Below are positions 42,974-61,540 of a stretch of 64,000 nucleotides of DNA, in pieces. Made by a program: the position numbers and the translations under genes. The notes below the pieces were generated by a model. The model was given only the letters and a program-made list of their open reading frames with translations. It did not search any database and was not told the DNA's origin. The stretch lies in sequence record PQ671644.1; one strand, 5' to 3'. Source of the stretch: Escherichia phage DCP80. Position 1 is the stretch's first letter, and each line of letters opens with the position of its first letter.

Positions 42974-43177
42974 TTATTTTTCGTTAGAACGATAATCATA
43001 TTCAAAAACTTTATTGTCATTAACAAAGGCTTTAACCAGTGCATTATTCACTTCTGCATACTGCACTGTAATCCATTCAATCATATTTTTGTCACTGACA
43101 TCTAGCGCGGTTTCTTTGGTAAACATATTACCATTTTCAAACCAACCAATAAACACTACGTTCTCTAATTTATACAT
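42974..43177 (-). CDS. dmd: Dmd-like antitoxin (copy 2)
   Basis: 67 aa, homolog of 26063-26266. Confidence 0.5.
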   Translation of the reverse strand: MYKLENVVFIGWFENGNMFTKETALDVSDKNMIEWITVQYAEVNNALVKAFVNDNKVFEYDYRSNEK

Positions 43178-43495
43178 TTAGATTTCCTCACAAAACGCCC
43201 AGGCGGCGTGATAAACTGTTGCACCTTTAGTGTCATTTAAACAAACCACGTCAACAGGTGCAATCACACGATAAAGACGGGGTTCTCCTCCATATGAGCG
43301 AGCTGCTCTTCCTGCATAGATACGCGCCAAACCAATATCTTCAGTAAAAAACACACGCCCTAAATTTTTCTTACGCCCAACTTCTGACAGAACACCAGTT
43401 GCATCAGGAGGACAAAGCATATTTTGGATTCCAGCATTAGAGCTTGAGCCATGATAATAAACTTTGTATTCTGCCTTGCAATCAATGGTTTTCAT
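43178..43495 (-). CDS. PARP-like-motif small protein (copy 2)
   Basis: 105 aa, identical in translation to 26267-26584. Confidence 0.35.
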   Translation of the reverse strand: MKTIDCKAEYKVYYHGSSSNAGIQNMLCPPDATGVLSEVGRKKNLGRVFFTEDIGLARIYAGRAARSYGGEPRLYRVIAPVDVVCLNDTKGATVYHAAWAFCEEI

Positions 43496-43563
43496 TTTAT
43501 TCTCCAGTAGTTGATAGGGTCATTATAACATAAGAAAAAGGGGCTTACAGCCCCTTTGTTCAC

Positions 43564-43866
43564 TTACGCCAACTCATAGTTGTGCATAGTCAGACAACGA
43601 ATTTTCCCAGTAGTTGGGTGCATAACAGTCACACTAATTGTGTAATCATCACACACGTTAACAAAAGGTTCGGCGATAACATATACTGCCCCACCTGCCA
43701 ACAGGTACTCACGAAGAGAGCTGCGAACAGATGAAGGTTGAACATCGCTTTTGAGCTTTATTAATTTACCAGTTTGAATGCCTGATGCGATAAGAGCAGC
43801 ACAGTTTTCATCACGGCGAGCGAACTGACCAAAATAGTAACGGTTCATATCGGTTTGATTAAACAT
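43564..43866 (-). CDS. hypothetical protein (copy 2)
   Basis: 100 aa, homolog of 26653-26955. Confidence 0.45.
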   Translation of the reverse strand: MFNQTDMNRYYFGQFARRDENCAALIASGIQTGKLIKLKSDVQPSSVRSSLREYLLAGGAVYVIAEPFVNVCDDYTISVTVMHPTTGKIRCLTMHNYELA

Positions 43867-43944
43867 ATGGTTTTCCTTTTAACAGTTGGTTTATTGTGTA
43901 ACTCAGTATGGAATCATTATGTCCTAAGACAAGGGGCTTGTACA

Positions 43945-44193
43945 CTATTTTAATTCATTAATTAAATGAAAATCTTGTGCATTGAAAGTAATGAAAAAAT
44001 AATCATTCCCTTCAACTGAAGCATGACAGGCAACACTACACCAGCGCCTTGCTCTGTTCAAGGAGCAATCCAAAATTTTAAAAGGCTTCAGACCAACAAT
44101 GGCAGCTGTTCTTTTATTATGCTCACAAATATCAGCATACTTTTGGAGAGCTTCTTCAGATTTGAACTGGTAATGCACATTAACTAATAACAT
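43945..44193 (-). CDS. hypothetical protein (copy 2)
   Basis: 82 aa, homolog of 27034-27282. Confidence 0.45.
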   Translation of the reverse strand: MLLVNVHYQFKSEEALQKYADICEHNKRTAAIVGLKPFKILDCSLNRARRWCSVACHASVEGNDYFFITFNAQDFHLINELK

Positions 44194-44281
44194 TTTATTA
44201 TCCTCATCAGTAGTTGATGGGATAATAGTACACCCTTTTTATGGTGATGTAAACCTCTAAATGAAAAAGACCCGAAGGTCT

Positions 44282-45721
44282 TTAGAATTTCATTTGAGCA
44301 GCAAGGTCGTCCAGGTCGCTCCTGTTGACCCTGGTTTGTCTATTCATTTCAGCCTGACGATTCATCTCACCGGTGGCTTCTTTAACCGTAGGGCCTTGTT
44401 TAGGAGCTGAATCATCATCAACCTCGTACCAGCGCTGATTACCTTTCTTAACACCCATCTTGAATTTATTATAGTAGTTCTTATCGCCATAACGAGACTT
44501 AAGCTGTTTGATTAACTGTAGTCCCATTTGAGCGAATTCTTCGGTCTCAACAACACCCAACATAAAGTCGGCCGTGTGAGCAATACCAAAGGATTCTGCG
44601 ATGTCAGCCATATCAATCTCAGCTGCAACGTTCGCACCCCTGGTTGTCTGCGCTGCAGTCCACAGGACTACATTTTTCTCAACAGCCAGACCACGAAGTT
44701 CTTCTGCAACCATCTTAATCAGGCCGTAACTGTTTTCGGTAAACGTTTTCAGTCTTGAGCTTGCACAGATTGCCAGGTAGTCAACAATAATCACATCCGG
44801 CACAAACCCTTGCTTCAGTTTGTATTCATTCAATAATGCACGGAAGGTATCTGCATGAGCGCCGCCAGTTGGATATTGTTTTATCTTCAGAGTCCCAAGA
44901 GTCCCGGAAGCACGCCACTTTTCCATCTTAGCTTTATATTCCGCCCATGATATATGACCTTCATCAATATCATCCAGAGATACATCCAGCAAGTTGGCAT
45001 CAATACGTTTGGCACATACTTCTTCAGCCATTTCCATGCTTATATAAAGAACATTATGACCAGTCTGAAGATAGTCAGCAGCTAACGAACAAAGTCCAAG
45101 AGATTTACCGACGTTTGTCCCGGCCAGTAAAACGTTCTCTGTACCGTACTCAACCCCACCCTTTGTGATTTTATTCAGGATGTTAATACGGAACGGAACC
45201 TTCTTCGATTTGTTCAGATAAGTCTGGAATCGAGCTTCGTAATCGTTTAACCAGTCATGGCCCAGAGCAGAGTCAAAACAGATAGACAATGCATCGCGCA
45301 TGATGTCGGGGATAGCACCAATATCCGGGATTCGTTTATCACGTTTATCTTTCGGAAGTTCGGCATTACTCTGGATTTCGATAATCCTGGATGTGGCATT
45401 GAACATCGCAGACTTCTGCACATACTTCTCGGTTTCTTTAACCAACCATTCCTGGTCTTCTGGAGTATCGGCCAGGACTCCTAAGAGTTTCTTTGTGCCT
45501 TCATATTCGACTTCAGAAAGGTCAGAACTGTCGAGCGCGATATCAAGTGCAGTCTTAGTTGGTACCGCTTGATATTCTTTTACGTGTTCGTTAATCGTAT
45601 TAAAAAGAGTCTTCGCGGGACCCTTTTCAAAATATGTGTTATTCAGATACGGCCAGACTTTAACAAAATATTCCTTGTTAAAGAGTAGCTGGGATAAAAT
45701 AGTTTCTACCACTTCCACCAC
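44282..45721 (-). CDS. 41: replicative DNA helicase gp41 (copy 2)
   Basis: 479 aa, near-identical to 27373-28812. Confidence 0.9.
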   Translation of the reverse strand: MVEVVETILSQLLFNKEYFVKVWPYLNNTYFEKGPAKTLFNTINEHVKEYQAVPTKTALDIALDSSDLSEVEYEGTKKLLGVLADTPEDQEWLVKETEKYVQKSAMFNATSRIIEIQSNAELPKDKRDKRIPDIGAIPDIMRDALSICFDSALGHDWLNDYEARFQTYLNKSKKVPFRINILNKITKGGVEYGTENVLLAGTNVGKSLGLCSLAADYLQTGHNVLYISMEMAEEVCAKRIDANLLDVSLDDIDEGHISWAEYKAKMEKWRASGTLGTLKIKQYPTGGAHADTFRALLNEYKLKQGFVPDVIIVDYLAICASSRLKTFTENSYGLIKMVAEELRGLAVEKNVVLWTAAQTTRGANVAAEIDMADIAESFGIAHTADFMLGVVETEEFAQMGLQLIKQLKSRYGDKNYYNKFKMGVKKGNQRWYEVDDDSAPKQGPTVKEATGEMNRQAEMNRQTRVNRSDLDDLAAQMKF

Positions 45722-46050
45722 CTCTTTTTCATTTTAATTTTATCAATTTCATCTTGTATTTGCATTGTAACACACTTTTCTACATGCACAGCAAGCTCCG
45801 CTTTGCGGTCTTCAGAAGGGGTGCCGAAATCAACTGAAACTTTTCCAGATGGTTCAATTTTAATTCCGGTTACGTACACAATGTGACTGGACCCATCAGG
45901 GAGTGATAACAGAATTTCCTGTCGTACGGTTCCCATGGATTGCCGGATAATCTCCAAACTTTTTTCGTAGTAAGGTACAGAAGGAGCCTTAGCTCCCTCC
46001 GCATCTTTCTCGAAATTATCTAAATCAGATAAATCGATATCATTCATCAA
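45706..46050 (-). CDS. 40: gp40-like protein (copy 2)
   Basis: 114 aa, identical in translation to 28797-29141. Confidence 0.55.
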   Translation of the reverse strand: MMNDIDLSDLDNFEKDAEGAKAPSVPYYEKSLEIIRQSMGTVRQEILLSLPDGSSHIVYVTGIKIEPSGKVSVDFGTPSEDRKAELAVHVEKCVTMQIQDEIDKIKMKKRWWKW

Positions 46051-47030
46051 GGTCTTCCATCATATCTAAATCGTTTTCGATATCTGCCGCAGACGGTTTT
46101 GTCTTACCTTCAGGAGCAGTGTATTTTTCAACCTTGGAGGCAATAAGCGCATCAACTTCGGCATCAACAACAGCATTGCTATCGATTGCACCCAGCTGGT
46201 AATGGCGTTTGATTGCGTCACGGAAAGGTTCGTGCTTGAACAACGGGCCCCAGAATTCGGTGCAGTTAGTATCTTTTGCGCGCCATGATTTTTCTTCGCG
46301 GACCATTTCACCGGTCTCAACATCAAGATATTCACGGTTATACCAACCAACTTTCGGTTTCACCACAAATCCGATTTCCATTGCCATATCAAGCAGGCCA
46401 GAATACGGGTCAATACCGCCATCGAATTTTACATCAATGAAGAATTTACTTTTCTCTTTGACCATACGAGATTTTTCGGCGTTCAGAACAAATTGGAAAC
46501 CTTCAAGTTCTTTACCAGTTTCTTTAATCTGGCGTTTGCCGATAATGAATACGGTGTCTGCGGAATACATAACACCTGTACCACCGGTCATAACGGTTTT
46601 GCTATACATCTCAATCGTCTCGATTGTATGGTTAACCGCGACACAAGGAATATCCTTGATGCTAAAATATGGAGTAACAATACGGAACAGAGATTTCAGG
46701 GATTTGGCACGAGTCATATCGCCAACAACTTTTTCGTTCATCGCATCTTCTGTTTCTTTTTTCGACGCCATGTTACCGATTGAGTCAATAAAGATAATGA
46801 CTTTTTCACCACGCTCAATTGCTTCAAGCTGGTTAACCATATCAACTTTCAATTGTTCAACCGACTGGATTGGTGTGTGGATAACACGTTCCGGGTCAAC
46901 TTTCATTGCACGAAGATAGGCTTCTGTGATACCAAATTCTGAATCATAGAACAAACAGATTGCATCGGGGTATTTGTTCATATATGCAGAGACCATCGTT
47001 AAACCCATATTGGATTTAAAGTGTTTTGAC
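46040..47030 (-). CDS. uvsX: recombinase UvsX (copy 2), 5' end lost in gap
   Basis: C-terminal ~330 aa, near-identical to the 29131-30309 copy. Confidence 0.85.
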
Positions 47031-47080: not shown

Positions 47081-47136
47081 ACGCAACCTCATGTTCGTTT
47101 AATTGAACGTCATCATCAAAGAGACTTACAGCCATT
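47081..47136 (-). CDS. 62: gp62 clamp loader small subunit, first 18 codons only
   Basis: Minus strand MAVSLFDDDVQLNEHEVA, ATG overlapping gp44 stop. Confidence 0.5.
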
Positions 47137-48085
47137 TCATTTCCCCAGCCAGTTGAGCAAACAGATAAGTCAAGTGAACTTCGGTATTGGCCGCAATGCC
47201 ATGATACTGATTGTTCTCACCTACAATCTCATACATGCGGATGATACTTGCACCAGTCAGTTTGCCATACATTTCATCAGCCAGCTTTGCAATGAAGCTT
47301 GAATAATCATTTGCATGTTTAGGAGCCAGACCACGAAGAACTTTAAAGTTACGGTCTTTAAGGGCATCAATCACATCATCAATTGGCGTGCGATTGTTTG
47401 TCACGATACTCAGAATACCAGAATCGATAACACCCTTTGCAGAGTAACGGTCAAGCTCGTTAATTGTCTTACGCAGGTCCGGGAAGTTATGCTTAACCAG
47501 AGCAGCAACAACTTTCAGGTCTTCGATTTCAACGCCTTCGTTTTTACATACCGCAACTGCACGATGAATCATCTCTTTCATCATGGTAGTCTGGTCAGCC
47601 GGAGTTGCTTCACCGAACTTAATGACGCGACAACGAGACTGCAACGGAGTGATAATGCCATCGATATTGTTCGCGGTCATAATGATTGAACAGTTGCTCG
47701 AATAAGCTTCCATAAAGCTACGAAGATGCCGTTGTGATTCGGCCAGACCTGCACGGTCAAACTCATCGATAACGATTACCTTACGGCGACCTTCGATTGA
47801 TTTGGATGATGCAAAGCGAGTCAATTCATTACGCACAAAGTCAATTCGACAATCGGAGCCGTTAACAAACAGCATATCAGAATTCGTATCTGCGCACATA
47901 GCTTTTGCAACTGTTGTCTTACCAGTACCAGGGGAACTACTGACCAGAATCAAGTTAGGAATCAAACCTTTTTTAACAATCGCCTCTAATGTTTCTTTAT
48001 CATGAGCCGGGAGAATACACTCTGATAATGTACCTGGGCGGTATTTTTGTTCCCACATGAATTCTTTGTCATTAACCGTTAACAT
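47126..48085 (-). CDS. 44: clamp loader large subunit gp44 (copy 2)
   Basis: 319 aa, one substitution relative to 23361-24320. Confidence 0.9.
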   Translation of the reverse strand: MLTVNDKEFMWEQKYRPGTLSECILPAHDKETLEAIVKKGLIPNLILVSSSPGTGKTTVAKAMCADTNSDMLFVNGSDCRIDFVRNELTRFASSKSIEGRRKVIVIDEFDRAGLAESQRHLRSFMEAYSSNCSIIMTANNIDGIITPLQSRCRVIKFGEATPADQTTMMKEMIHRAVAVCKNEGVEIEDLKVVAALVKHNFPDLRKTINELDRYSAKGVIDSGILSIVTNNRTPIDDVIDALKDRNFKVLRGLAPKHANDYSSFIAKLADEMYGKLTGASIIRMYEIVGENNQYHGIAANTEVHLTYLFAQLAGEMKWL

Positions 48086-48141
48086 ATATTTTCCTCATAT
48101 TAGTTTCTACTTTGTACTCCATGGGGCCGAAGCCCCATTTA

Positions 48142-48837
48142 TTAATCTTGGAATTCGTGGCTAGAGCCTTGTTCCATTGCAATCACATAGCTTGCTTGTG
48201 TGCCTTCAAACTTCGTAGCAAATTTATCATCTTTCGCCCAAAGCATAACACGGTAATCAGCCGGAATCATTTTCATGTTCAGTTTGTTAATGATAAATTT
48301 AAACGCTGCATCACCTTCGTAATCGCCACACACCAGGGAATACAATGGACGCGCCAATTCTTTATCTTCGAGCTGGTTATAACCATGGATAACAATCTTA
48401 CCGTCTTTGTTGGTGATTGCAAAAGTATCCAGAGACAAACCACCAGCCACACGCAGAAGCTGCTGCAGGTCACTGCCTTTCAGGTCGAAGATAACCTTAG
48501 CTACCGGGAAAGGAATCTTCTTAGCAGGGAACACGATAGTGCTCGGGTCAGCCGCAGGCCAGTGAATCGTTGAACGTTGGTCTTTGATAATGATATTTGA
48601 TGCGTCTTCAGCCAGAGATACTTCAGCTTGGTCAGTTACCAGGCCCAGGATACTTAAGAAGCCGTTCAGGTCATAAATCGCAGCTTCAAAGTCAATTGTA
48701 TCATTGATTTCGGATTCGCCATATGACGCTCCAGTTACAGAACGAGTCAGGATGGTATTACCCGGCTTAAGCATAATGCCAGAGTAAATGGAGGTGAAAT
48801 TTTTCAATACCGCGATTGTGTCCTTTGAGAATTTCAT
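48142..48837 (-). CDS. 45: sliding clamp gp45 (copy 2)
   Basis: 231 aa, same translation as 22609-23304. Confidence 0.9.
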   Translation of the reverse strand: MKFSKDTIAVLKNFTSIYSGIMLKPGNTILTRSVTGASYGESEINDTIDFEAAIYDLNGFLSILGLVTDQAEVSLAEDASNIIIKDQRSTIHWPAADPSTIVFPAKKIPFPVAKVIFDLKGSDLQQLLRVAGGLSLDTFAITNKDGKIVIHGYNQLEDKELARPLYSLVCGDYEGDAAFKFIINKLNMKMIPADYRVMLWAKDDKFATKFEGTQASYVIAMEQGSSHEFQD

Positions 48838-48902
48838 GTAATTACCTTTTATTCAATATTCAGTTAATGAGAATTAATTATACAACGTTTGTTAACAAGC
48901 AG

Positions 48903-49334
48903 TTAAGCAACAACTACCATTTGTTTGCGGATAGCTTCCGGAAGAGATTCAATATACTCTGGAAGTTGCGCAGCAATAATAGAACCAGCTTGCACCAGAT
49001 GGTCGTCCGAGTTAACACAATAATCATCTTCAAGACGTTCGGAACCATCACGGTCGATAACCAGTTTAGCACCAGCGGCCAGTGAATCATTGTAGTGATT
49101 ACGCATCAGTTCAATCCACTTATCAGATACATCAGTATCAATCACACCGTACAGCATGAATTTAATTTCTTGTGGCAGAGACTGCAGACGGGTAGCAGAT
49201 GCTTCATCACATGCCAGGACCCAGGATTTGCGAACACGGTTTTGGTTATGTGGGTTAGCGTCGGTGCGGATGGTTTTAACTTGGATATCTTTAGCAGTTA
49301 CGTTGTTCATAATATTCTCTCTATTCATTATCAA
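48903..49334 (-). CDS. hypothetical protein, RpbA-like by position (copy 2)
   Basis: 143 aa, homolog of 22147-22578. Confidence 0.4.
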   Translation of the reverse strand: MIMNRENIMNNVTAKDIQVKTIRTDANPHNQNRVRKSWVLACDEASATRLQSLPQEIKFMLYGVIDTDVSDKWIELMRNHYNDSLAAGAKLVIDRDGSERLEDDYCVNSDDHLVQAGSIIAAQLPEYIESLPEAIRKQMVVVA

Positions 49335-49586
49335 TTAATCAAAGTATTCATATGCGAACCAGGCATTGTGTCTGTTCGCGATTATTTTAACATATTCTTC
49401 GCCGAAAGCGTTTTGTAAGTCACGTTCAGTAACAAGGTGTTCATCTTTCGAAAAGGTATTAACTAACACATACCGTTTAATTTCAGGGACAGCCAGTAAA
49501 TGCTGCCCGGTTAAGAAGTCAGCCATAATAGCCTCTATTATAACATCCTTGTTTAAAGCATTATTCCATAACAGTGAATCGACCAA
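49335..49586 (-). CDS. hypothetical protein (copy 2)
   Basis: 83 aa, homolog of 21895-22146. Confidence 0.4.
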   Translation of the reverse strand: MVDSLLWNNALNKDVIIEAIMADFLTGQHLLAVPEIKRYVLVNTFSKDEHLVTERDLQNAFGEEYVKIIANRHNAWFAYEYFD

Positions 49587-51243
49587 CTTTTTTCATCTGG
49601 AGATGTTGCCCGTATGCTTCCGGGTCATGGTCTCGGTGACTGATAATAAAGATGTTGGTGTCTTCCAATTTGTTCAGGATGGTAGCAATTGCTTTAACAC
49701 CCTCTACATCCGTAGCCGAGTCAAAAACTTCGTCCAGAATCAAGGTGTTAATATTAACACCAGATACTTTCGCAGCAATATCACGCCATGTAAACAGCAA
49801 TGCAATATCGATACGAGCTTTTTCACCCTGGCTAAATGATGCATAGCTGAAGTCTTCACGTCCACGAGATTTAATCGTTTCGTTGAACTCTTCATCTAAC
49901 GTAAAACTATAATCAGCTTCCATAACTTTAAGATAAGCGTTTATCTGCTTATTAAAGATAGGAATATATTTCTTAATAATCGCACCCTTGATACCAGAAT
50001 CTTTCAACATATCCGTTAGGATACCACGTTGATATTTTTCCATCACAAGGTCAGATTTCTGTTTGACTATTTTATCAAGCTGGTCTTGAAGCATTTTAAT
50101 GTCTGCAGCATGGTCAATGAATTCTGACTTGGCTTGCTCGATTAATGCTTTAACCTTTTTAGCTTTTTCGACAGTCTGGACTAAGGTTTGTTTCTTGGTT
50201 TGAATGTCTTGAGCTATTGTACGCTGGTTTTGTCTTGCCTTGGTATACGCATCAAATTGCTCCTGAACAGCGTTCTGGCGAGCTTTATGGTTATCAGCTG
50301 ATACATTACATTCTTCAATCTTTGACTCAATCCTGGCGACAATAGGGTCTCCTGGATGCAACTGACTGGCACAAGTCTGACAGCAACCACCTTTCTCGTA
50401 CAGACCAACAACCTTTCGGTAATCGTCTATCTTCGATTTAATCAGGAATGATTCCTGCTTTAACTTCGTGAGTTCATGCTCAGGGTCTTCTCCCAAGATT
50501 ATCTCGGTCAGTCTTGTCGTTGCTTCTTCGATAGTCGTCTTGATTCCACGTGCTTCTGTGGCAAGTTCATCATACATCGTTTGCAGCCGCAACAGATTAT
50601 CACCTGATAATTTTCTTTGGCGGTCTTCGTTGTCCTGATAGATTTTAATCTGTTGAACAATACCATCATGCTGCACATCCATCACCTGGATTTGACTATT
50701 GACTTCGCGGATAAGAGATTTGTTCAGCTTATCCATATCGGCCAGTACAGAAACCTCTAAAAGGTCTTCGACAAGTTTTCTTCTTGCAGGAGTGGATAGG
50801 CCCATAAAAGGGGTATATCCAGCTGTGCCGAGTACGACAATCTGTTTGAAGCTTGCATAGGACATTCCGATAAGCTGTTCAAATTCCGCTTGGAAGTCTT
50901 TACTGCTGGCAGATTCATCAAGACGTTTACCGCCACAAGAGATTTCAAAAACATTGGGTTTTTGCCCGCGTTTGATATAGTATTCTTTTCCATCATATTC
51001 CATCCACAATTCAACGAGCATATCTTTTTTATTGCTCGAGTTAATCAGCTGGCCTTTCTTTACATCACGGAAAGGCTTACCGAACATAGCAAAGGTAACC
51101 GCTTCAAGGAACGTAGATTTCCCCGCGCCGTTCTTACCGGTGACCAGAGTTTTCTGGACTTTATCCAGTTCAACAGTAATCGGTTTGGCGCCAACCGACA
51201 TAATATTTTTATAGATAACTTTCTTAAGCTTAAAAGTCTTCAT
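49561..51243 (-). CDS. 46: recombination endonuclease subunit gp46 (copy 2)
   Basis: Start MKTFKLKK at 51243; near-identical to 20238-21920. Confidence 0.9.
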   Translation of the reverse strand: MKTFKLKKVIYKNIMSVGAKPITVELDKVQKTLVTGKNGAGKSTFLEAVTFAMFGKPFRDVKKGQLINSSNKKDMLVELWMEYDGKEYYIKRGQKPNVFEISCGGKRLDESASSKDFQAEFEQLIGMSYASFKQIVVLGTAGYTPFMGLSTPARRKLVEDLLEVSVLADMDKLNKSLIREVNSQIQVMDVQHDGIVQQIKIYQDNEDRQRKLSGDNLLRLQTMYDELATEARGIKTTIEEATTRLTEIILGEDPEHELTKLKQESFLIKSKIDDYRKVVGLYEKGGCCQTCASQLHPGDPIVARIESKIEECNVSADNHKARQNAVQEQFDAYTKARQNQRTIAQDIQTKKQTLVQTVEKAKKVKALIEQAKSEFIDHAADIKMLQDQLDKIVKQKSDLVMEKYQRGILTDMLKDSGIKGAIIKKYIPIFNKQINAYLKVMEADYSFTLDEEFNETIKSRGREDFSYASFSQGEKARIDIALLFTWRDIAAKVSGVNINTLILDEVFDSATDVEGVKAIATILNKLEDTNIFIISHRDHDPEAYGQHLQMKKVGRFTVME

Positions 51244-51493
51244 CGTAATAAGCATCCTTGATACATGATTCAGCCATATGGATTAATGCCTCTGGGGTAT
51301 CATCTTCCATTACATTAAAGCTAAATTCTACGGCCCAATCGGTGACTACATAGACTTTGATAAGTTGACCAGTTTCCCGGTCAGTGATAGCTTCAAACCA
51401 ATACTTAATAGTATTCGGTTGATTATCGTCGTCAACCACATCACATTCGCGGATATGCTCAAGCCCCGCTTCATTAAAATCATAAAGTCTCAT
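51230..51493 (-). CDS. hypothetical protein (copy 2)
   Basis: 87 aa, homolog of 19779-20042. Confidence 0.45.
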   Translation of the reverse strand: MRLYDFNEAGLEHIRECDVVDDDNQPNTIKYWFEAITDRETGQLIKVYVVTDWAVEFSFNVMEDDTPEALIHMAESCIKDAYYDEDF

Positions 51494-52285
51494 GGTTGCA
51501 CCTCAAGATATAATTTGTTGGCCAATGCTTTGAGAGCTTTTGATTCTTTCTCATTGGCGTCAGGTAATGCATCGATATATTCTGCCATCATATCTGTTAA
51601 GCGTTTTATGTCTAACTCTTCATCAGAGTCTGACGTATCAACACTGTTATCAACCTTATTGACAACACGCAATTCGTGCACACGCTTTTCTAATTCAGAT
51701 TCGAACTTGGTCAGGTCTTTATCGACTTTTTCTACAATAACACGGACTGATAAGTCTTTGAAGTCGTCGTAGTTAATAGTTTCGTTTGGATAAAAAATCT
51801 TCCGATGCCAGGTGGTTTCATTCGGAATAAATTTCATCTCTTCGGTTTCTGTATCAAATTCCCAGAATCCGCGCGGGTCATTCTCATCACCTGCTGTTAA
51901 TGTCCATGGCGTTCCTATGTACTTAACGTTCGCAGCTTCTGAAATGGTATGGAAGTGCCCAGACCAAACTTGCTTGTACTTCTTAAGGAAATCAGGCTCA
52001 AGTCCGTGGGATTTCAATCCTTTATAGAAATAAAACCCGGTTAATTCCCAGTGACCGATGCAATATTCGGCACCAGAAGTTTTGATGTGTTGATGAATGT
52101 CAGTCGCGTTCTCGTCACACATCCATGGAATCATATCAATCTGACAACCGTCAAAATCAACAGTCGTTGGCTTATCGTAGATTTTAACATGGTCATACTT
52201 ATTCAGGAGTTCAGTGATAGCATTAGGATGAATCTTATTCTTCAGATTCATGTCATGGTTCCCGACTATCGTGTGCATAGTAATT
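51490..52285 (-). CDS. 47: recombination endonuclease subunit gp47 (copy 2), 5' end lost in gap
   Basis: From ...ITMHTIVGNHDMNL to stop, near-identical to 18763-19782. Confidence 0.85.
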
Positions 52286-53251: not shown

Positions 53252-56200
53252 TTAATTTAATTTAGCTTCAAGTTCTCTAACTTTAGCCGACAGGGTTTTA
53301 ACTGCTTCAATTAACAGAGCAACTTGTGCCTGAGTCGAAACTGTCAGAACCATATTTTCCTGCGAATCTAAAGACTCATGCACCGCTTCAGGTAATACTT
53401 CTTTAAGATTCTGAGCAATAACACCTGCTTCAGTTTGAACCGCTTCACCACCGATATATTCAGCTTTATCATAGATTAAACCGTCGAGCTGTTCAACCTT
53501 TTCAAGAGCATTTTCAATAGGCCTGAAGTTTGATTTCAAACGAATGTCAGAACGAATATAAACGTTTGGAGCATTTATATTTTTATATGAGTACAAATCA
53601 CCGTTTTGGAAACGGAAAGTCTGTACGCCATTCGCATATATGTCTAATAATCCATCGCCATTTTGCTTAATACCGGTATCACTATCGCCAATTGTTATAC
53701 TACTTCCACCGAGTGAGTTAGTTGTATTAACACCAAAGGCACTTGTTTGTGGCATCTGTACTTTACCCGGGCAATCTAAAATGCCATCCATTGTAAATCG
53801 CCATCTTGCTTGTTGGCCGTTAGCGTTATCTCCGCGAATACGAATAATACCTTCTCGCCAACCAGCTGTGGTACCAGAGCCGACCCATCCAAATTCAAAG
53901 GTTTGACGATATCCAGAGGAACCATAGTTGCTGTATGCACCTACAATAGGATAATAACTACCTGAATTAGATAAATCACCATGGTCTGCCATAAAGGTGA
54001 TTTTAGATTTCATTGTATCTGAGGTATCTCCCCAACCAGAGGCACCGCGCCAACCTGCAACCACACGAGACGAGATATTGCCTAAACTAGTATTACCACT
54101 GGTGACATTAAGGCCGCCCGCCACGTTCAGACCACCACCAGTAATATTCAGACCACTGCCCATGCCTACACGACCATCAGCCATGTTGATAGAGAAAGGT
54201 CTTAAGCCATTCCACAACCCGTCAGTTGCATTCGGGTTTTCTTCCGTGTTTTTATCCGTAACTAAAATATGAAAATTTTCACCGTCGTTTCTAATCAAAG
54301 CGGCATTAGAACCTATATCATTACCGCTGGATTTGATACGCATACCTTTTTGGTTATTGGTAACGTATTCACCACGTGTAACAATATCCGATTCGCCGGC
54401 AGCAAACATTCCGTCAATGTTGTTCAGCATTCTTACAGATTTACCTACAACATGACCTTCAGGTAATGTTTCTACCAAAGGCTGGACACCGCTATTAATA
54501 CCCACTACGGTTACTTTACTATTGCTACTGCATGTATATTCTACCGCCAAAGAATTAGAATACCCACCTAAGTAAACGTAAATATCATAGGTATCTTCGC
54601 TTGTATTAACAGAAGCAATCTGAGAAATAGCTTCAGAAGTTCTATTCCACAGCGTAGCATTAAGGCCTTTAGGGTTATTATTGCCGGTTCTAAGGACTAT
54701 TTCGGCTATTGAAGCCTGACCATAACTTTTAAAATTAAATCCAGAACCACCTGATATTTTAAAGGATGCTGTACCCGTCGCTTGTGGAATTTCTACAGTA
54801 GCAAATTTATACCAACCTGTAGTAGCGCCGCCAGCCCAACCGCCTGTGTTAACTTTACGGTCTAACGTTGTGTTCAGGTTTTTAAAGTTATCTAATGCAG
54901 TGCTGCCTGTAATATTACCGTCAGGACCAATACGAACATCGGAACCAATTTTAAGTGCCTTGGTTATATCAACAGTATCAGAGTTTAATGCAATACCATG
55001 GGAGTATGTATAGTTATGTAAACGAACAACGTTGCCGCCGTCGCCAATACCGAGATACCATTTTGTAACATCTGCTTTACGTCCTTGGATAAAGTTGGAT
55101 GATGCCTGGGATGAAGCATTTACCACAATGGCATCAGAATCCATATTAACACGCAGTCTACAGTCGGTCTGGACAAATTTACTTACGTTGTCTACTGTAA
55201 AAAGTGGACCATACCCGGCACTTTTATTCCCCATTATAACCGTGCCGGTGGCTAAATTGATAGATAGCGGACGAAGGTCACTTATTCCACCATTTTCTCC
55301 AGCGTTCTGAAGAGTAGGAATAAGATGGAATGAAGCAGAAGAACCTGTTTCTGAACGACGGAAAATCATACCATATTCGGCATTCCAAATTCTTAATGCA
55401 TCAGCGGTACCGCCTATTTTAACTTGACCGTTAAAAGTGGCGCCACCATTTATATTCAATCCGTTTGCTGAAGTGATACTACCTTCCGATGAAATACTAC
55501 CAGCAGTAGTCAATCCACCATTTACACGGAATTGAATAGAACCTACGGTTTGGGAACTTGTGGGAGCAACGCGTTGTGAATAAAAATGCCAACCCTGTCC
55601 ATCGCCTAATTCAAATACAGTTTCTCTGCTTTTATTAGTGTCATCCTCAAATGCGTTACCCCATACTTTCATGGTCACATAGCTTTTGTTCTGACCCGGG
55701 CGGGTGCCTGCGTTCCAAACAATCGTTTTTGTGCCATTGATAGTGGAAGAAGCGCCGAACTTTATACCTTTATTGTTGTTGTTAGTATTAAAAAATAATT
55801 CGTTATCTAATTTAACTGGTTGGGTCGAGGAAACTGTGCCATCGGCTCTAAGATTCAGTTCATTAACCCCGGTTTTAATATTCAAAATACCTGGTTCAAT
55901 AATCATGCCTTCTGCCATAGAAATGGCTACACGACCTGTACCACGGAAATAATGATAAAGTTTACCATTAGAATTATAACCTAAATGGGTTTGGCCATCC
56001 CCAGAGTTATTACCGTCTATTTCGGTTCTAATAGAAACCATAGAAGAGTTCTGGCCAGGCAGAAGCCAAGTAAGACCTTGGTCATTACTACGGCCAAATA
56101 TGGTTTTACTAGTCCCACGGAAGCCGTCGGAAGTAATAGATGCAACGGAATAACCTCCACCAACTAAATCATAAACACCTTGCTTAATATATTTCAGACC

Positions 56201-57004
56201 GGTTACAGTGTCACCGAGAACAAGATACTTATCGCCCATTACACCGACGTTACCATAATCACTAGACGGGAAACCCGTAGTGAATGTACCTAATGCAAGG
56301 CTATTACGGCCTGCCATTCGTCCGTCATTACGAATGCCATATTGTTTAGATGATGGAGTATTACCTGTCCACCATGACATTTCATCAGCTTGACCTGTCT
56401 GGGCGGTGCAAAGCTCATGCCACATAGTGCCACCAGACTTGGCGCGAACTTTACGAAGATAGTTTACACCATTCGTTTCGCCTGTGCCTGGGTATACATA
56501 ATTAACTAATGAATCTGTATCATATACACCAAAGGCTTTGCCACCGTGGATAACTGTATCGACTGCAATGCGTTTAGTTACTAATGAATCTGATGCTAAA
56601 ATACGGTTGGCCTGAAATTCACCACCATTTATAGAACGGAAATAGAATTCACTATTAGCAGTACCTTCTGTCCCCTGTTTAATCCTAATGCGTAATTCAC
56701 CAGCATTTGTAGTTTGAGGACGTGCATATATAACACCGCGTTCACTGCCATCAGCATTTTCAAACCATAAATGGGCATTTGATGTTGTATCGTTTGAAGC
56801 TCTTGAATAAAACGAGCCTTGCAACGCTCTAAAAGTTTGAGCCGAAATACTAGTGCCTGCTGTAATCGACCCGCTTGTAGAAAAGTTTCCAAAATTGTTT
56901 AATGGGCCGTTAATGCGTAAAGTTCCATTAATAGTTACATCCCCGTCAACCTGCCCACCTTTAGCAAAGCCCAAATCAATAATCTGTCCCTGGTCTGACT
57001 TAGT
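53252..57004 (-). CDS. 37: long tail fiber distal subunit gp37, N-terminus lost in gap, with C-terminal intramolecular-chaperone-like domain
   Basis: About 1250 aa of continuous frame; long beta-rich fiber repeats; C-terminus [17 protein letters not shown]...[11 protein letters not shown]...[19 protein letters not shown] resembles self-cleaving peptidase S74 chaperone modules; synteny 37-38-t. Confidence 0.8.
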
Positions 57005-57040
57005 NNNNNNNNNNNNNNNNNNNNNNNNNNNNNNNNNNNN
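57005..57040. other. assembly gap (N-run)
   Basis: 36 Ns. Confidence 0.95.
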
Positions 57041-57056
57041 GCGGAAAGGGGGTGTT

Positions 57057-57224
57057 ATGAAAACATTCAAAGATTTTATCAACGAAGATATGGTTGCAGG
57101 TGATGCAGGTGGAAACCCAACTAATATCACAACAGGTACCACTTCCGGGGCAGTTGTCAATAAAGGCCCTGAACAAATCCCATCAAAAAAGCGTAAGAAC
57201 AAAGACGATAAACCTACAGTATAA
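57057..57224 (+). CDS. small basic protein with N-terminal capsid-targeting-like sequence (candidate internal protein)
   Basis: 55 aa; AAGGGGG RBS; MKTFKDFINE resembles the T4 internal-protein CTS MKTYQEFIAE with an I-x-E cleavage motif; C-terminus KKRKNKDDKPTV. Confidence 0.45.
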   Translation: MKTFKDFINEDMVAGDAGGNPTNITTGTTSGAVVNKGPEQIPSKKRKNKDDKPTV

Positions 57225-57226
57225 TG

Positions 57227-57243
57227 GTCCTTCGGGGCCATTG
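57227..57243 (+). promoter_or_regulatory. UUCG tetraloop hairpin upstream of gene 61
   Basis: TGGTCC-TTCG-GGGCCA (one G-U pair), no U-run, 12 nt before the gene 61 RBS. Confidence 0.35.
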
Positions 57244-57256
57244 AAATGAGGAAACT

Positions 57257-58285
57257 ATGTCATATATTGATAAAGAATTTGCAGTCAGAGCTTTATCGTA
57301 TCAACCACGTTATAGAGAAGTCACCGGGAGCACATTTAAAGCAAACTGCAGATGTAAAGTTTGTGGCGACTCCCAGAAAGATTCACATAAAGCCAGATTC
57401 TGGGCGTATACTAATCCGGCTGATGGCGCGGTTTACGTGAAATGTTTTAACTGTGACTACTCCACGCATATAAGCAAATACATAAAAGAGTTTGAGCCGG
57501 ATTTGCACCGGGAATATATGGTTGAGAAGTACAAGGAGAACGCCTTCGGGCGACAACGCACTGAAGTTGTCGAAACTCCGAAAGAACCAGAAAAAACTCC
57601 GGTTATCGAACAGCTTGCTTTTTGTGAAAGACTCGATACTTTACCAGAAGCACATCCGATAGTTAAGTATGTAAAAAGTCGATGTATTCCAAGCAATGTT
57701 TGGAACCGGTTATGGTTTACAAACCAATGGCCCGCATTAGTTAACTCCGTCAATCCTGGGACGTATAAGAATGAAACGAATGAACCACGCTTGGTTATTC
57801 CTATCTTCAACGGCAAAAAAGAAATCGAATCTTTCCAAGGACGAGCTCTTCGCAAAGATGCACCACAAAAATATATCACAATCAAAGCTCACCCAGAAGC
57901 TTCCAAAGTCTATGGCGTAGACAAGATTGATGAGCGTAAACGCGTATGGGTAATGGAAGGTCCAATTGATAGTTTGTTTATCCCTAACAGCATTGCGATA
58001 ACTGGTGGCACATTGTCATTGGAAGCAGTTCCTTATGCTGAAACCAGAGTATGGGTAATGGACAACGAGCCAAGACATCCGGATACGATTAAACGTATGA
58101 AGAAGCTCGTTGAAGCTGGCGAAGCTGTTATGTTCTGGGACAATGCACCATGGCATACGAAAGACATAAATGAGATGGTTAAATCAGAAGGGGCAACCCC
58201 TGAACAAATCGAATCATATATGGCCGATAACGTTGCTCAAGGATTGATGGCGAGAATGCGACTTTCGAAGTACGCAAAAGTTTAG
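57257..58285 (+). CDS. 61: DNA primase gp61
   Basis: 342 aa; zinc ribbon C..C...C..C, ...IKEFEPDL.REY..., ...EPRLVIPI.N......SFQGRAL.KDAPQKYITI.A.PEA.K.YGV......V.V.EGPIDSLFI.N.IAITGG.L.LE.VP......VWV.DNEPRHPDTIKRM.KLV.AGE.VMFWD..PW..KD.N.M...EGATPEQI..YM..N.AQGLMA.MRLSKYAK match recalled T4 gp61. Confidence 0.9.
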   Translation: MSYIDKEFAVRALSYQPRYREVTGSTFKANCRCKVCGDSQKDSHKARFWAYTNPADGAVYVKCFNCDYSTHISKYIKEFEPDLHREYMVEKYKENAFGRQRTEVVETPKEPEKTPVIEQLAFCERLDTLPEAHPIVKYVKSRCIPSNVWNRLWFTNQWPALVNSVNPGTYKNETNEPRLVIPIFNGKKEIESFQGRALRKDAPQKYITIKAHPEASKVYGVDKIDERKRVWVMEGPIDSLFIPNSIAITGGTLSLEAVPYAETRVWVMDNEPRHPDTIKRMKKLVEAGEAVMFWDNAPWHTKDINEMVKSEGATPEQIESYMADNVAQGLMARMRLSKYAKV

Positions 58286-58393
58286 GAAGGGATTCCGGTA
58301 AAGTAACCGATGATGGAATGAATATGTTCTATTGTGACCTGGGGTAAGTGCACCCCTTGTGTTGCAGCGATAGGCACAACCAGTAAGTTCCAC

Positions 58394-58591
58394 CTATATA
58401 AGGCCGATTAATGCTAGTGAAACATCTACAACTGATTCGAGCGCGACGACTGGCAATATAACACCATGTGCCAATGCAATAGGGGCAACAATGAAATTCC
58501 AGAGTAGAACAAAACAGAGTATCGAAAGGACCAGAATCGTTCGCTTACGACTGCCTTTGATGGCTTGAATTAGACTAGATAGTTTGAGCAT
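58394..58591 (-). CDS. antisense small hydrophobic protein
   Basis: 65-aa ORF on the opposite strand to all neighbours, strong AGGAGG RBS 7 nt upstream, two predicted hydrophobic segments. Confidence 0.35.
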   Translation of the reverse strand: MLKLSSLIQAIKGSRKRTILVLSILCFVLLWNFIVAPIALAHGVILPVVALESVVDVSLALIGLI

Positions 58592-58675
58592 ACATCCTCC
58601 TTTCTTGTATTTATGCTTTAAACCAATATGATATAATTAACATACAAACAATATGAATTGATAAGGAAAAATATA

Positions 58676-59194
58676 ATGGCTCATTTTAACGAGTGTTCTC
58701 AACTGATTGCTGGTGTTGATAAAGCGCAAGATGCGTATAATGATGTCCTAAAAGGCAATGATGACCCTCTGCAGATTATGCTTGATATGCAGAAATCTTT
58801 GCAGGTTCGTCTGGCTACAGAAAAACCAGAATATAACGCACATCCAGATGAATTGGCAACCGCAGGCGATGTTGTTGCATGGCTTCGTAACCAGAAAGAT
58901 TATGTCGACGACGAATTCCGTGAACTTCTGACTTCGCTCGGTGGCATGTCTAATGGTGAGAAAGCCGCATCCAGTTGCTGGAAGCCGTGGAAAGCGCAAC
59001 ATGCTGAATATCGTAATCGTCGTATTGATGAACTGTCTCCTGAAGACCAGCTCGAAATTAAATTCGAAATGATTGATATTCTGCACTTCGTTCTGAATAT
59101 GTTTCAAGGTCTGGGTCTTTCTGCTGAAGAAATCTTTAAACTGTATTACTTGAAAAATGCCGAGAACTTTGCTCGCCAAGACCGAGGTTATTAA
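58676..59194 (+). CDS. 56: dCTP pyrophosphatase gp56
   Basis: MAHFNEC..LI.GVDKAQ..Y.D.L......DPLQ.MLDMQ..LQ.RLA......HPD.L.TAGDVV.W.R.QKD..DDEFRELLTSLG.MS.GEK.AS..WK.WKA........RIDE.SPEDQLEIKFE..DI.HFVLNMF.GLG..AEEIFKLYYLKN.ENFARQDRGY matches recalled T4 gp56; track ORF starts at upstream TTG. Confidence 0.85.
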   Translation: MAHFNECSQLIAGVDKAQDAYNDVLKGNDDPLQIMLDMQKSLQVRLATEKPEYNAHPDELATAGDVVAWLRNQKDYVDDEFRELLTSLGGMSNGEKAASSCWKPWKAQHAEYRNRRIDELSPEDQLEIKFEMIDILHFVLNMFQGLGLSAEEIFKLYYLKNAENFARQDRGY

Positions 59195-59475
59195 TGGCTC
59201 GTTTAAATAAACGTCAACTTAAGAAAGCTCGTAAGAAGCATATTAATGCTATAATTGAAAACGCTAATGTTGAAATCTTTGTAGAACTCTTAGCCAATCA
59301 ACTAAAAAATTTATCTAAACAAGAAATTGATATGAATACTGAAAATGCTAAAAATGTAATCGAAACTCATAATGTTTTTGCTCAAGCTACAGCCGAATAC
59401 ATTGCCAATCCTACTGCTGAAAATCTAGCTAAAATGACTGAAGCCAATAAAGCAGTCCAAGCCGCCAAATTGTAA
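59194..59475 (+). CDS. hypothetical protein
   Basis: 93-aa ORF, ATGA overlap with gene 56 stop. Confidence 0.45.
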   Translation: MARLNKRQLKKARKKHINAIIENANVEIFVELLANQLKNLSKQEIDMNTENAKNVIETHNVFAQATAEYIANPTAENLAKMTEANKAVQAAKL

Positions 59476-59476
59476 G

Positions 59477-59484
59477 TTATAAAT
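59477..59484 (+). promoter_or_regulatory. late promoter TATAAATA upstream of soc
   Basis: Exact TATAAATA about 33 nt upstream of the soc ATG. Confidence 0.55.
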
Positions 59485-59516
59485 ACACCTGTAATTAAAC
59501 AACAAAGGAGTTTATT

Positions 59517-59750
59517 ATGGGTGGTTTCGTTAATATCAAAACCTTCACGCATCCAGCTGGTGAAGGTAAAGAAGTTAAAGGCGTTGAAGTATCAGTTCCG
59601 TTTGAAATCTATTCGAACGAGCACCGTATTGCTGATGCGCACTATCAGACTTTCCCTTCGGCCGTTGCAGCATATACTACTGTAGTGACTGATGCAGCCG
59701 ATTGGCGAACTAAGAACGCGGCAATGTTTACGCCTACCCCAGTAGTTTAA
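59517..59750 (+). CDS. soc: small outer capsid protein Soc
   Basis: 77 aa; GFVNIKTF......GKE..VPFE.YSNEHRIADAHYQTFPS..AAY.TV matches recalled T4 Soc. Confidence 0.75.
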   Translation: MGGFVNIKTFTHPAGEGKEVKGVEVSVPFEIYSNEHRIADAHYQTFPSAVAAYTTVVTDAADWRTKNAAMFTPTPVV

Positions 59751-59755
59751 TTATA

Positions 59756-59780
59756 GGGAACCTTCGGGTTCCCTTTTTTG
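59756..59780 (+). terminator. rho-independent terminator with UUCG tetraloop after soc
   Basis: GGGAACC-TTCG-GGTTCCC followed by TTTTTTGCTTTT. Confidence 0.65.
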
Positions 59781-59827
59781 CTTTTAATAGAGATGGTATA
59801 ATTATTTCAACTACAGAGGAGAATACT

Positions 59828-60025
59828 ATGTTAAACCGTTGGATTAAACCAAATAAAACTTTAGATGAAGTTATTGCCCATGATGTGCATTTTAAGTATG
59901 GTCTGGGTGTGTTTGACGAGGTTGTCGTGCACTCGTTCATGATGCACGATGATGATTCTTTAGAATTCAATATTGAAATCCGTTATGATGATGGTCAAGT
60001 TGAATTTAAACGAGGTTTCCTATGA
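59828..60025 (+). CDS. hypothetical protein
   Basis: 65-aa ORF with GAGGAG RBS. Confidence 0.45.
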   Translation: MLNRWIKPNKTLDEVIAHDVHFKYGLGVFDEVVVHSFMMHDDDSLEFNIEIRYDDGQVEFKRGFL

Positions 60026-60381
60026 TTAGTTGGCTCAAGAATTTATTCAAGACTAAACCTGGTGAAGGGGTGGTTCCTGTTAGCCTGCCAGATGTTAAAC
60101 TAAGAGAATATGTTTACATGGGCGATGGTATGATGGAAGAAGTTCGTCGCCGCCCAGAAAAAGCCGGTAATGTCGGACCAGGCGCATTGCCATTGAATTC
60201 GAAAAAGTTAAAAGAGCATCTGGATTCAAGACGTTCTACAAGCCATGTCGATACTACACCGCATATTGATATGACTCCGATTGTGGTTACTGCGGCCGCT
60301 GTCAGTTCGTGGACTGGTGATTCGTCTTATTCCTCCTATGATTCAGGAAGCTGCGATTCATCTTCCAGCTCGTGTGATTAA
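60022..60381 (+). CDS. hypothetical protein with Ser/Cys-rich C-terminal tail
   Basis: 119-aa ORF; tail DSSYSSYDSGSCDSSSSSCD. Confidence 0.45.
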   Translation: MISWLKNLFKTKPGEGVVPVSLPDVKLREYVYMGDGMMEEVRRRPEKAGNVGPGALPLNSKKLKEHLDSRRSTSHVDTTPHIDMTPIVVTAAAVSSWTGDSSYSSYDSGSCDSSSSSCD

Positions 60382-60576
60382 ATGAGAATTACAAGTTGGC
60401 TTAAAGATTGGTTGGTTACCCCGGGGATTGATGATTCCTGGGTGGCCAGAGCCGAGGAAGAAATGCAGCGCGAAGCTGAAGAATGGGCCGCCGCAAGCGT
60501 CAAAGATATGCAGGAAAAGAAGACCGAACGAGCTGTGCTTAAACTGATGCGTGATATCTACGGAGATAAATCATGA
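60382..60576 (+). CDS. hypothetical protein
   Basis: 64-aa ORF. Confidence 0.4.
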
Positions 60577-60722
60577 CACAAGAAGAAGCTGAACGTCAGG
60601 CAAAAGAAGCACTGGATTTGCTTTTGAAAATTGGCAGTAAAATGATGGAAGAAAATGAAAAGTACATCAAGGAAAATAAAGTTCCTGATGGTCCATTAGT
60701 TGGTAAGAGGAAAACATTATGA
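60573..60722 (+). CDS. small hypothetical protein
   Basis: 49-aa ORF translated by eye, ATGA overlaps on both sides. Confidence 0.3.
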
Positions 60723-61207
60723 AAGTATATGAATTAGAATTCTATGTCCGTGATTCTGCTGGGCAAACACGACCTTACGATGCAACAGCCTGTCTTATCT
60801 TTGCATATAATGGCATGGATTCGGTTACTGAGTTGGAAACAAAATTAATGAACCTGACGATGCCAGAAAATGTCATGATGAAGGTATTTCATAACAAAAA
60901 CGTTAATGTGGCTGAAGGGTGTCCGTTTACTGTTTCCGAAGCTCTACACATTAAAGGCTATCGTCACCCGGACCCTTATGCAGAAGGTACTGCGGATATC
61001 TTCTATAAAGATACCGATAGAATTTCAGAAGAACGCCTTAAAGGTCGCACATATCTGATTTCCACTACCGACGACCTTGCTGAAGTTGAACGTCAGATTT
61101 GGAAGCACTTTGATATCGGTCTGCGCTTTACTTTAACAGAAGAAGCTATTCAAGATACTAAAATGCGTGCTCGTATGTATGGTTACGGTCCGATTGGTGG
61201 TTACTAA
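60719..61207 (+). CDS. hypothetical protein
   Basis: 162-aa ORF. Confidence 0.5.
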
Positions 61208-61383
61208 TGGATTTATTTGAACTTTTTGAAGAGCCTAAAGCTCCCACAGAAGCCCGTGTGGACCTAGTTGACGAACTTGATGCGATTATACAGAAGCACG
61301 GTTTTAGTCTCCCATTGGAAGTTCTGCGCGACCTGGCCTCATATTACGACGACCCACCTCCATGGGCACCATGGAAACAGTAG
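61207..61383 (+). CDS. small hypothetical protein
   Basis: 58-aa [16 protein letters not shown]..., overlaps previous stop. Confidence 0.35.
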   Translation: MDLFELFEEPKAPTEARVDLVDELDAIIQKHGFSLPLEVLRDLASYYDDPPPWAPWKQ

Positions 61384-61504
61384 TTTACTTACTCCCCTCC
61401 TAATGACATAATGACCTTTCTTACAACAGAGAGGTCATTATGAACATCATCAAATCTGATACCGAACCCAACCAGTTAAAATTTAGTGAAATGGAGATAG
61501 CTTC

Positions 61505-61540
61505 ANNNNNNNNNNNNNNNNNNNNNNNNNNNNNNNNNNN
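61505..61540. other. assembly gap (N-run)
   Basis: 36 Ns. Confidence 0.95.

Follow-up and report, generated by a model that had tools for sequence, protein, structure and literature searches.

What is encoded in the spacer between the genes for DNA primase (gene 61) and dCTPase (gene 56) of Escherichia phage DCP80, where an open reading frame (ORF) of 65 codons lies on the strand opposite to both of its neighbours? The spacer occupies positions 58286-58675 of the 64,000-nucleotide stretch of sequence record PQ671644.1 analysed here (the window), and the ORF, designated ORF-A, occupies 58394-58591 on the minus strand. A sequence-only reading of the window had drawn attention to this ORF, to the AGGAGG motif preceding it and to two hydrophobic segments in its product, had described the spacer as GC-rich, and had named a moron or a toxin-like peptide among the possible identities of the gene. 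Judged by its pattern of conservation, ORF-A is a real, conserved gene that has been vertically inherited rather than recently imported, and it is already catalogued as a hypothetical protein family, PHROG 2024. The reading favoured here, to which we assign a probability of roughly 60%, is that T4-type phages (Tevenvirinae of enterobacteria) inherit ORF-A vertically as an accessory gene encoding a late, single-span membrane protein that would modulate a late event at the cell envelope. The supposed GC-rich spacer with its ORF resolves into this catalogued gene, the stump of a deleted paralogue and two candidate promoters placed back to back (Table 1).

Conservation of ORF-A among T4-type phages

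ORF-A is present on the minus strand as the sequence-only reading had described it, with an ATG start codon and an AGGAGG Shine-Dalgarno sequence 4 nt upstream, and the ORF list contains no plus-strand ORF of at least 30 amino acids (aa) within the spacer. A Shine-Dalgarno sequence containing GGAG is found at the equivalent place in 22 of the 22 homologous loci listed. The product, MLKLSSLIQAIKGSRKRTILVLSILCFVLLWNFIVAPIALAHGVILPVVALESVVDVSLALIGLI, matches the phrog_2024 profile with residues 1-65 on profile positions 1-65 of 65 (E = 1.9e-26) and has the identical sequence (100%) of a hypothetical protein already deposited for phage vB_EcoM_RZ. Two types of the protein occur in T4-type phages, type A, represented by ORF-A, and a paralogous type B. 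Searches with tblastn gave matches to type A in 707 phage records, among them ~30 Gaprivervirus records at 80-100% identity and ~670 Tequatrovirus and Mosigvirus records at 46-54%, with weaker matches in Moonvirus; matches to type B were obtained in 115 phage records.

The gene is found at one fixed position in several hundred T4-type genomes belonging to at least 10 genera, at 30-100% protein identity. In every locus inspected (T4, RB69, U115, MN01, Moon, Q7622, JS09, SA21RB, T2, OE5505, JN02, pSs-1, JS10, Marfa, PM2, SEA1 and PEi20), it is located 3′ of gene 61 on the opposite strand and convergent with it, and its stop codon overlaps the primase stop codon or sits within a few nucleotides of it. 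A locus search of IMG/VR yielded three loci (VR20, VR25 and VR26), and the other relatives were taken individually from GenBank phages. ORF-A shares with the PHROG 2024/RB69ORF029w family its length, the invariant W-N...P...G...P.V motif and the position convergent with gene 61; it differs in being separated from gene 61 by the remnant of a paralogue, whereas the single copy in T4 and RB69 overlaps the primase stop.

The homologue in RB69 is annotated as RB69ORF029w, described by Nolan et al. (2006) as a novel ORF with one predicted transmembrane segment at residues 21-41 (PMC1524935, supplement). In the T4 RefSeq genome (NC_000866.4), an intact 66-codon homologue lies between dam and gene 61 at 17738-17938 on the plus strand, with an ATG start, an AAGGAGG ribosome-binding site and a GATAAATA box upstream, but the record has no feature at this place. 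Annotation is likewise missing for the homologues in JS10, PEi20 and JN02, and elsewhere the gene bears misleading names: A-type proteins are called 'Holin' (UniProt, OE5505) or 'holin family protein' (Bakta, EAWsc9), and B-type proteins are called 'DNA packaging ATPase' in UPEC01, SAKp28 and VAC36, all of these products being 63-66 aa in length.

Substitutions in the gene are distributed as in a coding sequence, with variable sites at codon positions 1/2/3 numbering 14/3/15, 7/0/9 and 4/0/11 in three genera, for a total of 25/3/35 (chi-square p = 3e-6). Pairwise ratios of nonsynonymous to synonymous substitution rates (dN/dS) are 0.05-0.6 and below 1 in the three genera; together with the avoidance of codon position 2, these values indicate that the protein is under purifying selection. 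Length is also maintained, as the protein has exactly 65 aa in 34 of 35 clusters of close homologues.

The earlier description of the spacer as richer in guanine and cytosine (GC) than its surroundings was not reproduced by direct windowed calculation. The GC fraction of 58286-58675 is 0.392 against a window mean of 0.404, placing it at the 32nd percentile of 390-bp windows, and that of ORF-A (0.419) is close to those of gene 61 (0.425) and gene 56 (0.428). Only the 108-bp piece at 58286-58393, the paralogue remnant, is slightly higher (0.472), and the 84-bp promoter piece at 58592-58675 is very AT-rich (0.226). The neighbour-like composition of ORF-A and its fixed position in the genomes argue that it is not a moron.

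Predicted membrane topology and probable late expression

A profile search of a database clustered at 90% returned 114 clusters, nearly all of 62-69 aa. When 1.84 billion representatives were searched exhaustively with HMMER, just 18 clusters at 50% identity emerged, each of small proteins (33-82 aa) with the family motif. This motif, W-N-x4-P-x5-G-x3-P-x-V, follows a basic N-terminus and is present in the ORF-A protein; across 30 diverse members, ORF-A protein included, residues M1, W31, N32, P37, G43, P47 and V49 are invariant. The net charge of the N-terminus ranges from +2 to +6 in these 30 members (+5 in the ORF-A protein), and that of the C-terminal ~20 residues ranges from 0 to -2 across members (-2 for the C-terminal 22 residues of the ORF-A protein).

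The two hydrophobic segments noticed earlier are visible in the hydropathy profile, in which the best 19-residue Kyte-Doolittle window begins at residue 18 with a score of 2.58 and the C-terminal 22 residues score ~2.0. An AlphaFold2 model based on the family alignment, with a mean predicted local distance difference test (pLDDT) score of 71.6, contains helices at residues 4-10, 15-41 and 51-62, the last of only 12 residues, and an extended conserved loop at residues 42-50. The basic N-terminus and the positive-inside rule together predict a topology in which the N-terminus is inside, the chain spans the membrane once and the C-terminus is outside or re-entrant. The second hydrophobic segment, in which acidic residues are conserved and which in B-type proteins is far less hydrophobic, is probably not a full second span. 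In the predicted arrangement, the 65-aa protein would reside in the inner membrane with its basic N-terminus in the cytoplasm and a single long transmembrane helix, at approximately residues 15-41, bearing Trp31-Asn32 and Pro37. This helix would be followed by the conserved turn G43-x3-P47-x-V49 and a short, slightly acidic C-terminal helix, either periplasmic or re-entering the membrane. The ORF-A protein and its T4, RB69 and B-type homologues matched nothing in Pfam, NCBIfam or PADLOC, and a Foldseek search of viral predicted structures returned family members and one weak match named 'Holin'; a helical model of 65 residues is too simple for such fold searches to be informative.

Distant relatives matching phrog_2024 (E = 4e-10 and 7e-11) were identified on hundreds of contigs, in prophages of E. 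coli and Hafnia, extending a family with a sharply conserved Trp-Asn membrane motif into enterobacterial prophages. The prophage relatives are 70 aa in length, have Y-N-Y in place of W-N-F and are located in the tail or late region. In one type of prophage, the gene is the last before a disrupted yegD, with a T4-type lysozyme gene 1.5 kb (five genes) away and a DUF2730-like gene for a transmembrane/coiled-coil protein nearby. In a second type, it follows a tail-tip fibre gene, a gene for a 98-aa transmembrane/coiled-coil protein and an endonuclease VII-like gene, and an annotated glycoside hydrolase is ~27 kb away on the prophage map. Such settings are consistent with late expression but do not decide the role of the protein. 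Endonuclease VII-like or GIY-YIG nuclease genes adjoin the prophage relatives, and searches with the neighbouring 179/196-aa and 106-aa products gave no informative matches.

Upstream of ORF-A, 16 nt before the ATG codon and within the ~15-25 nt expected of T4-type late genes, is a candidate T4-type late promoter box, CATAAATA, which differs from the consensus TATAAATA by one mismatch at -13, the least conserved position. The T at -13 is poorly conserved among the late promoters of T4 relatives (PMC1524935), and a list of 50 T4 late sites contains 32 that fit the consensus perfectly and nine with A at -13, the others mostly showing a different single deviation (PMC2988020). VATAAATA occurs once in the 64-kb window, at the ORF-A box, against 14.9 +/- 3.9 expected occurrences, and ATAAATA occurs six times on the two strands of the window against 19.1 +/- 4.6 expected. 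This approximately three-fold depletion fits selection against stray late promoters, the sequence being avoided except where it is presumably used. Of the 14 lineages examined, 12 have a NATAAATA box whose spacing is conserved despite flanks that cannot be aligned; it reads GATAAATA in T4, T2, OE5505 and PM2, AATAAATA in RB69, SA21RB, pSs-1 and JS10, CATAAATA in PEi20 and a perfect TATAAATA in Marfa and Q7622, the two exceptions being Moon and SEA1, with ATTAAATA.

The early and middle transcripts of T4 are all of one polarity and only the late transcripts use either (PMC2988020), so that late expression is expected for ORF-A from its position on the opposite strand. ORF-A is most likely transcribed late from a gp55-type promoter of its own, the putative box CATAAATA, and this transcription may depend on gp55, gp33 and gp45 and begin after the onset of replication. 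The gene is thereby placed among the few of the T4 early region that are on the late-only strand, with a conserved variant of the late-promoter box. At least three of the five perfect TATAAATA boxes in the window are 19-32 nt before start codons. One perfect box on the plus strand, at 59478-59485, is located 32 nt before a 77-aa ORF (59517-59750) that corresponds by position to soc, encoding the small outer capsid protein, in relatives, a late gene on the 'early' strand. A scan for sigma-70 promoters upstream of ORF-A on the minus strand gave weak 9-of-12 matches, which were rejected in favour of the late box.

Candidate functions of the ORF-A protein

Under the favoured reading, the strong Shine-Dalgarno sequence would drive translation of ORF-A, and its product, like other very small membrane proteins, would act late through helix-to-helix contact by way of the buried Asn/Trp motif, binding a second copy of itself or some membrane partner. 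The late envelope event in which it takes part could be the timing of lysis or the protection of the membrane against host defence; by analogy, and with low confidence, this is the likeliest area of function. The gene, kept by several hundred sequenced phages, is probably non-essential.

Several points weigh against this reading. The functional guess is made by analogy alone. Decades of T4 rapid-lysis and lysis-defective mutant screens are not known to have mapped a locus here, which makes a strong role in lysis or lysis inhibition unlikely. The structural model is of moderate confidence (pLDDT 71.6), and the C-terminal segment is clearly hydrophobic in A-type proteins, making a second span possible. 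Position -13 of the promoter box is C in the window and G in T4, whereas the known variants mostly have A, and a coordinate search of the late promoters listed by Nolan et al. gave no entry at the RB69 site (PMC1524935). Literature searches yielded no functional study, and the papers found describe the gene only as RB69ORF029w, a novel ORF with one predicted transmembrane segment.

A bolder proposal, which we regard as rather doubtful, is that the T4 gene at NC_000866.4 17738-17938 encodes a late-made single-span membrane protein that is an unrecognised envelope player of the T-even phages, for example one that adjusts when the holin triggers or one that shields the cell from membrane-acting host defences, with the A and B types reflecting different partners. 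By-products of the analysis include the missing T4 annotation, the conserved variant of the late box, the A/B paralogues with a microhomology deletion, and the prophage relatives.

The T4 antiholin RI and holin T are likewise small or single-span inner-membrane proteins made late, and both have the N-in/C-out orientation that is predicted for the ORF-A protein. They show no sequence similarity to it in the exhaustive search, however, and have folded periplasmic domains where the ORF-A protein is predicted to have a periplasmic part of ~22 residues; unlike RI and T, ORF-A has no known genetic link to lysis inhibition. That the protein is itself a holin or pinholin, accumulating late in the inner membrane and triggering lysis through the lesions it forms, is improbable. 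It is small, hydrophobic and probably late, some homologues carry the holin names noted above, which are backed by no model match, and the Foldseek match is to a 72-aa 'Holin' of an uncultured siphovirus (E = 0.56, probability 0.94, 23% identity). Class II holins and pinholins such as S68 of phage 21 also resemble it in their ~65-70 aa, two hydrophobic stretches and probable late expression, and in one type of E. coli prophage the family member is 1.5 kb from the T4-type lysozyme and DUF2730-like genes. However, the charge of the ORF-A protein is reversed relative to these holins, being at the N-terminus, with a hydrophobic or weakly acidic C-terminus instead of the hydrophilic, highly charged cytoplasmic tail usual in holins; it lacks a dual-start motif, and no holin model of Pfam, NCBIfam or PHROG is matched even at E up to 10, the PHROG that does match having no assigned function. 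The gene is also placed between those for primase and dCTPase, beside no endolysin gene and outside any lysis cassette, the second prophage type has its glycoside hydrolase ~27 kb distant, and T4-type phages already encode holin T, the loss of which blocks lysis. A role in superinfection exclusion or immunity, by blocking a receptor or the entry of DNA in the manner of T4 Imm and Sp or of the Cor/Llp proteins of other phages, is likewise given little probability. Imm and Sp are also small envelope proteins from the same early-gene neighbourhood, the spackle gene being ~2 kb upstream in relatives; the E. coli prophage members are beside tail-tip or tail-fibre genes or last at the prophage end, where exclusion genes are often found, and two paralogous types with repeated loss of one resemble an accessory gene in an arms race. 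Imm and Sp, however, are transcribed early from the other strand, and the 18 family-motif clusters obtained from the profile search of 1.84 billion representatives include no homology to either. The opposite strand and the late-promoter-like box argue against early immunity of the Imm/Sp type, for which late expression would come too late, and are compatible with a late role at the envelope or in lysis.

A protein that neutralises a membrane-acting abortive-infection effector triggered late would fit, indirectly, an accessory gene whose paralogues turn over and whose probably late product is embedded in the membrane and keeps a polar residue in its helix. This counter-defence role nevertheless seems unlikely: it has no known target, PADLOC-DB gave no match (its library consists of defence rather than anti-defence proteins), and nearly all members of the subfamily have the gene, in contrast to the patchy distribution of most counter-defence genes. 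Very little probability remains for a recently acquired moron or toxin-like peptide, as the sequence-only reading had envisaged; the gene does have its own promoter-like box and ribosome-binding site on the strand opposite to its neighbours, but its GC content equals theirs, its position is fixed across at least 10 genera, and Pfam, NCBIfam and Rfam scans revealed neither a toxin family match nor an antisense-RNA partner. Composition and distribution contradict a recent import; for a toxin-like activity as such, the results count neither for nor against. The nearest terminator-like site that a consensus scan gave on the minus strand after ORF-A is inside gene 61, at 58201-58189, with none before that gene; this weighs at most slightly against a moron and in favour of an explanation in which the protein is incidental and the real function is a late antisense RNA reaching into the 3′ end of gene 61 and shutting off primase mRNA. 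In most lineages the stop codons of the ORF and of gene 61 overlap or adjoin, and T4 is known to transcribe opposite strands at different times (PMC2988020). As a replacement for the protein this is highly improbable, in view of the protein-like substitutions, with dN/dS below 1 in three genera and almost no change at codon position 2, the residues that remain invariant at 25-50% identity, where DNA alignment fails, and the conserved strong Shine-Dalgarno sequence; an antisense effect could operate alongside the protein. What does stand from the sequence-only reading, on the comparative evidence, is a convergently transcribed gene, with its own ribosome-binding site, for a putative small membrane protein.

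A decayed paralogue and the surroundings of the locus

In MN01, VR25 and VR26, two tandem small genes, ORF-A and ORF-B, are located between genes 56 and 61. Intact ORF-B lies 9 nt downstream of ORF-A, encodes 66 aa beginning with MGTLFYQIWKLTSKKDKK and overlaps the gene 61 stop; its product is 28% identical to that of ORF-A, and the family motif is common to both. The B type is the only copy in Dhakavirus (JS10), Klebsiella phages such as Marfa, Kanagawavirus Q7622, Pectobacterium phage PM2 and Salmonella phage SEA1. According to the alignments, the 108 bp between ORF-A and gene 61 in the window are the remnant of this paralogous gene. MN01, VR25 and VR26 contain two copies of the 8-bp direct repeat GTGGAACT exactly 97 bp apart, of which the window has one; in the window and in phage 212, the 97 bp between the repeats have been lost, and with them the start and first 30 codons of ORF-B.

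Other members of the genus have lost the gene by other routes, as ORF-B of VR20 contains an ATG TGA nonsense change and a 2-bp deletion, and that of EAWsc9 has lost its start codon and has a different deletion; SP18, TH54 and P896 give truncated ORF-B matches like that of the window. ORF-A is intact in the window and in 212, VR20, EAWsc9, RZ and P8, and these different inactivations beside an intact ORF-A suggest two partly redundant paralogues, one of which is being lost. In vB_EcoM_RZ, vB_YenM_P8 and DK-13, the region is ~800 bp longer than in the window and a homing-endonuclease gene is annotated between ORF-A and gene 61, with a truncated ORF-B match beside it in RZ and P8.

Table 1. Coordinates of features at and around the ORF-A locus (window positions unless another sequence is named).
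Feature	Position	Strand	Remarks
Gene 61 (DNA primase)	57257-58285	+	phrog_47, E = 1.4e-94; annotated as primase in phage 212; convergent with ORF-A and ORF-B
ORF-B remnant	58282-58393	-	Last 36 codons (WNLLVVPIAATQGVHLPQVTIEHIHSIIGYFTGIPS, then stop); stop overlaps gene 61 stop; from DNA and protein alignments
Weak hairpin, possible terminator	58341-58356	+	GGGGTAAGTGCACCCC then TTGTGTTG; stem of 5 bp, poor T-run; consensus scan; inside ORF-B remnant
Deletion junction	58386-58393	-	Single remaining copy of the 8-bp direct repeat GTGGAACT
ORF-A, putative small membrane protein gene	58394-58591	-	65 aa; ATG start; TAG stop at 58394-58396
Shine-Dalgarno AGGAGG	58596-58601	-	4 nt before ATG; CCTCCT on plus strand
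Candidate T4-type late promoter box	58608-58615	-	CATAAATA; 16 nt before ORF-A ATG; consensus TATAAATA
Candidate MotA-dependent middle promoter for gene 56	58614-58637	+	TGCTTTA (58614-58620), 11 nt, TATAAT (58632-58637)
Gene 56 (dCTPase)	58676-59194	+	phrog_173, E = 6.4e-45; Pfam dUTPase_2; divergent from ORF-A
Runs of N (start positions)	8994, 17791, 24743, 30887, 36511, 41760, 47031, 52286, 57005, 61506		Ten runs
Prophage relative, extracted E. coli NZ_CP024269.1 locus	8002-8214		
Prophage relative, extracted NZ_AP027709.1 locus	9723-9935		

The candidate middle promoter for gene 56 stands back to back with the late box. Its TGCTTTA element fits a putative MotA-box by our own comparison with the consensus, and in RB69 a middle promoter (Pm:16038, minus strand) is predicted at the equivalent place, between ORF029w and gene 56 (Nolan et al., PMC1524935). 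The weak hairpin within the ORF-B remnant is a possible candidate terminator for gene 61 transcripts. No known RNA gene accounts for the spacer, as 58100-58800 drew no Rfam match at E up to 1. Directly after the Shine-Dalgarno sequence, an out-of-frame ATG (AGGAGGATGTATG, 58592-58595 within 58589-58603, minus strand) opens a 6-codon mini-ORF overlapping the true start; it is absent from MN01 and EAWsc9, which have ATATATG there, and is probably irrelevant.

Sequence identity places the region in a T4-type phage of Gaprivervirus; over the 1.9 kb that comprise gene 61, the spacer and gene 56, it is 97.9% identical to Escherichia phage 212 and 92-96% identical to SP18, TH54 and VR20, and the annotation of relatives agrees with the assignment of gene 56. 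The window as a whole is not one natural molecule, being composed of 11 segments split by ten runs of N, and pairs of segments are 94-98% identical, some of them inverted (1-8993 with 9041-17790, 17801-24742 with 47081-52285, and 24761-30886 with 41801-47030). It resembles a scaffold assembled from contigs of at least two related phages rather than a single natural genome. The locus itself is located in a clean segment, 57041-61505, that is colinear with relatives and in which ORF-A is the sole minus-strand gene, all others being on the plus strand. Directly upstream of gene 61, where relatives have dmd, sp and 61.x genes, a listed ORF of 1329 aa (53252-57241, minus strand) crosses the N-run at 57005-57040; its N-terminal part is an artefact and the rest is tail-fibre-like as judged by eye, and its adjacency to gene 61 is probably a scaffold junction.

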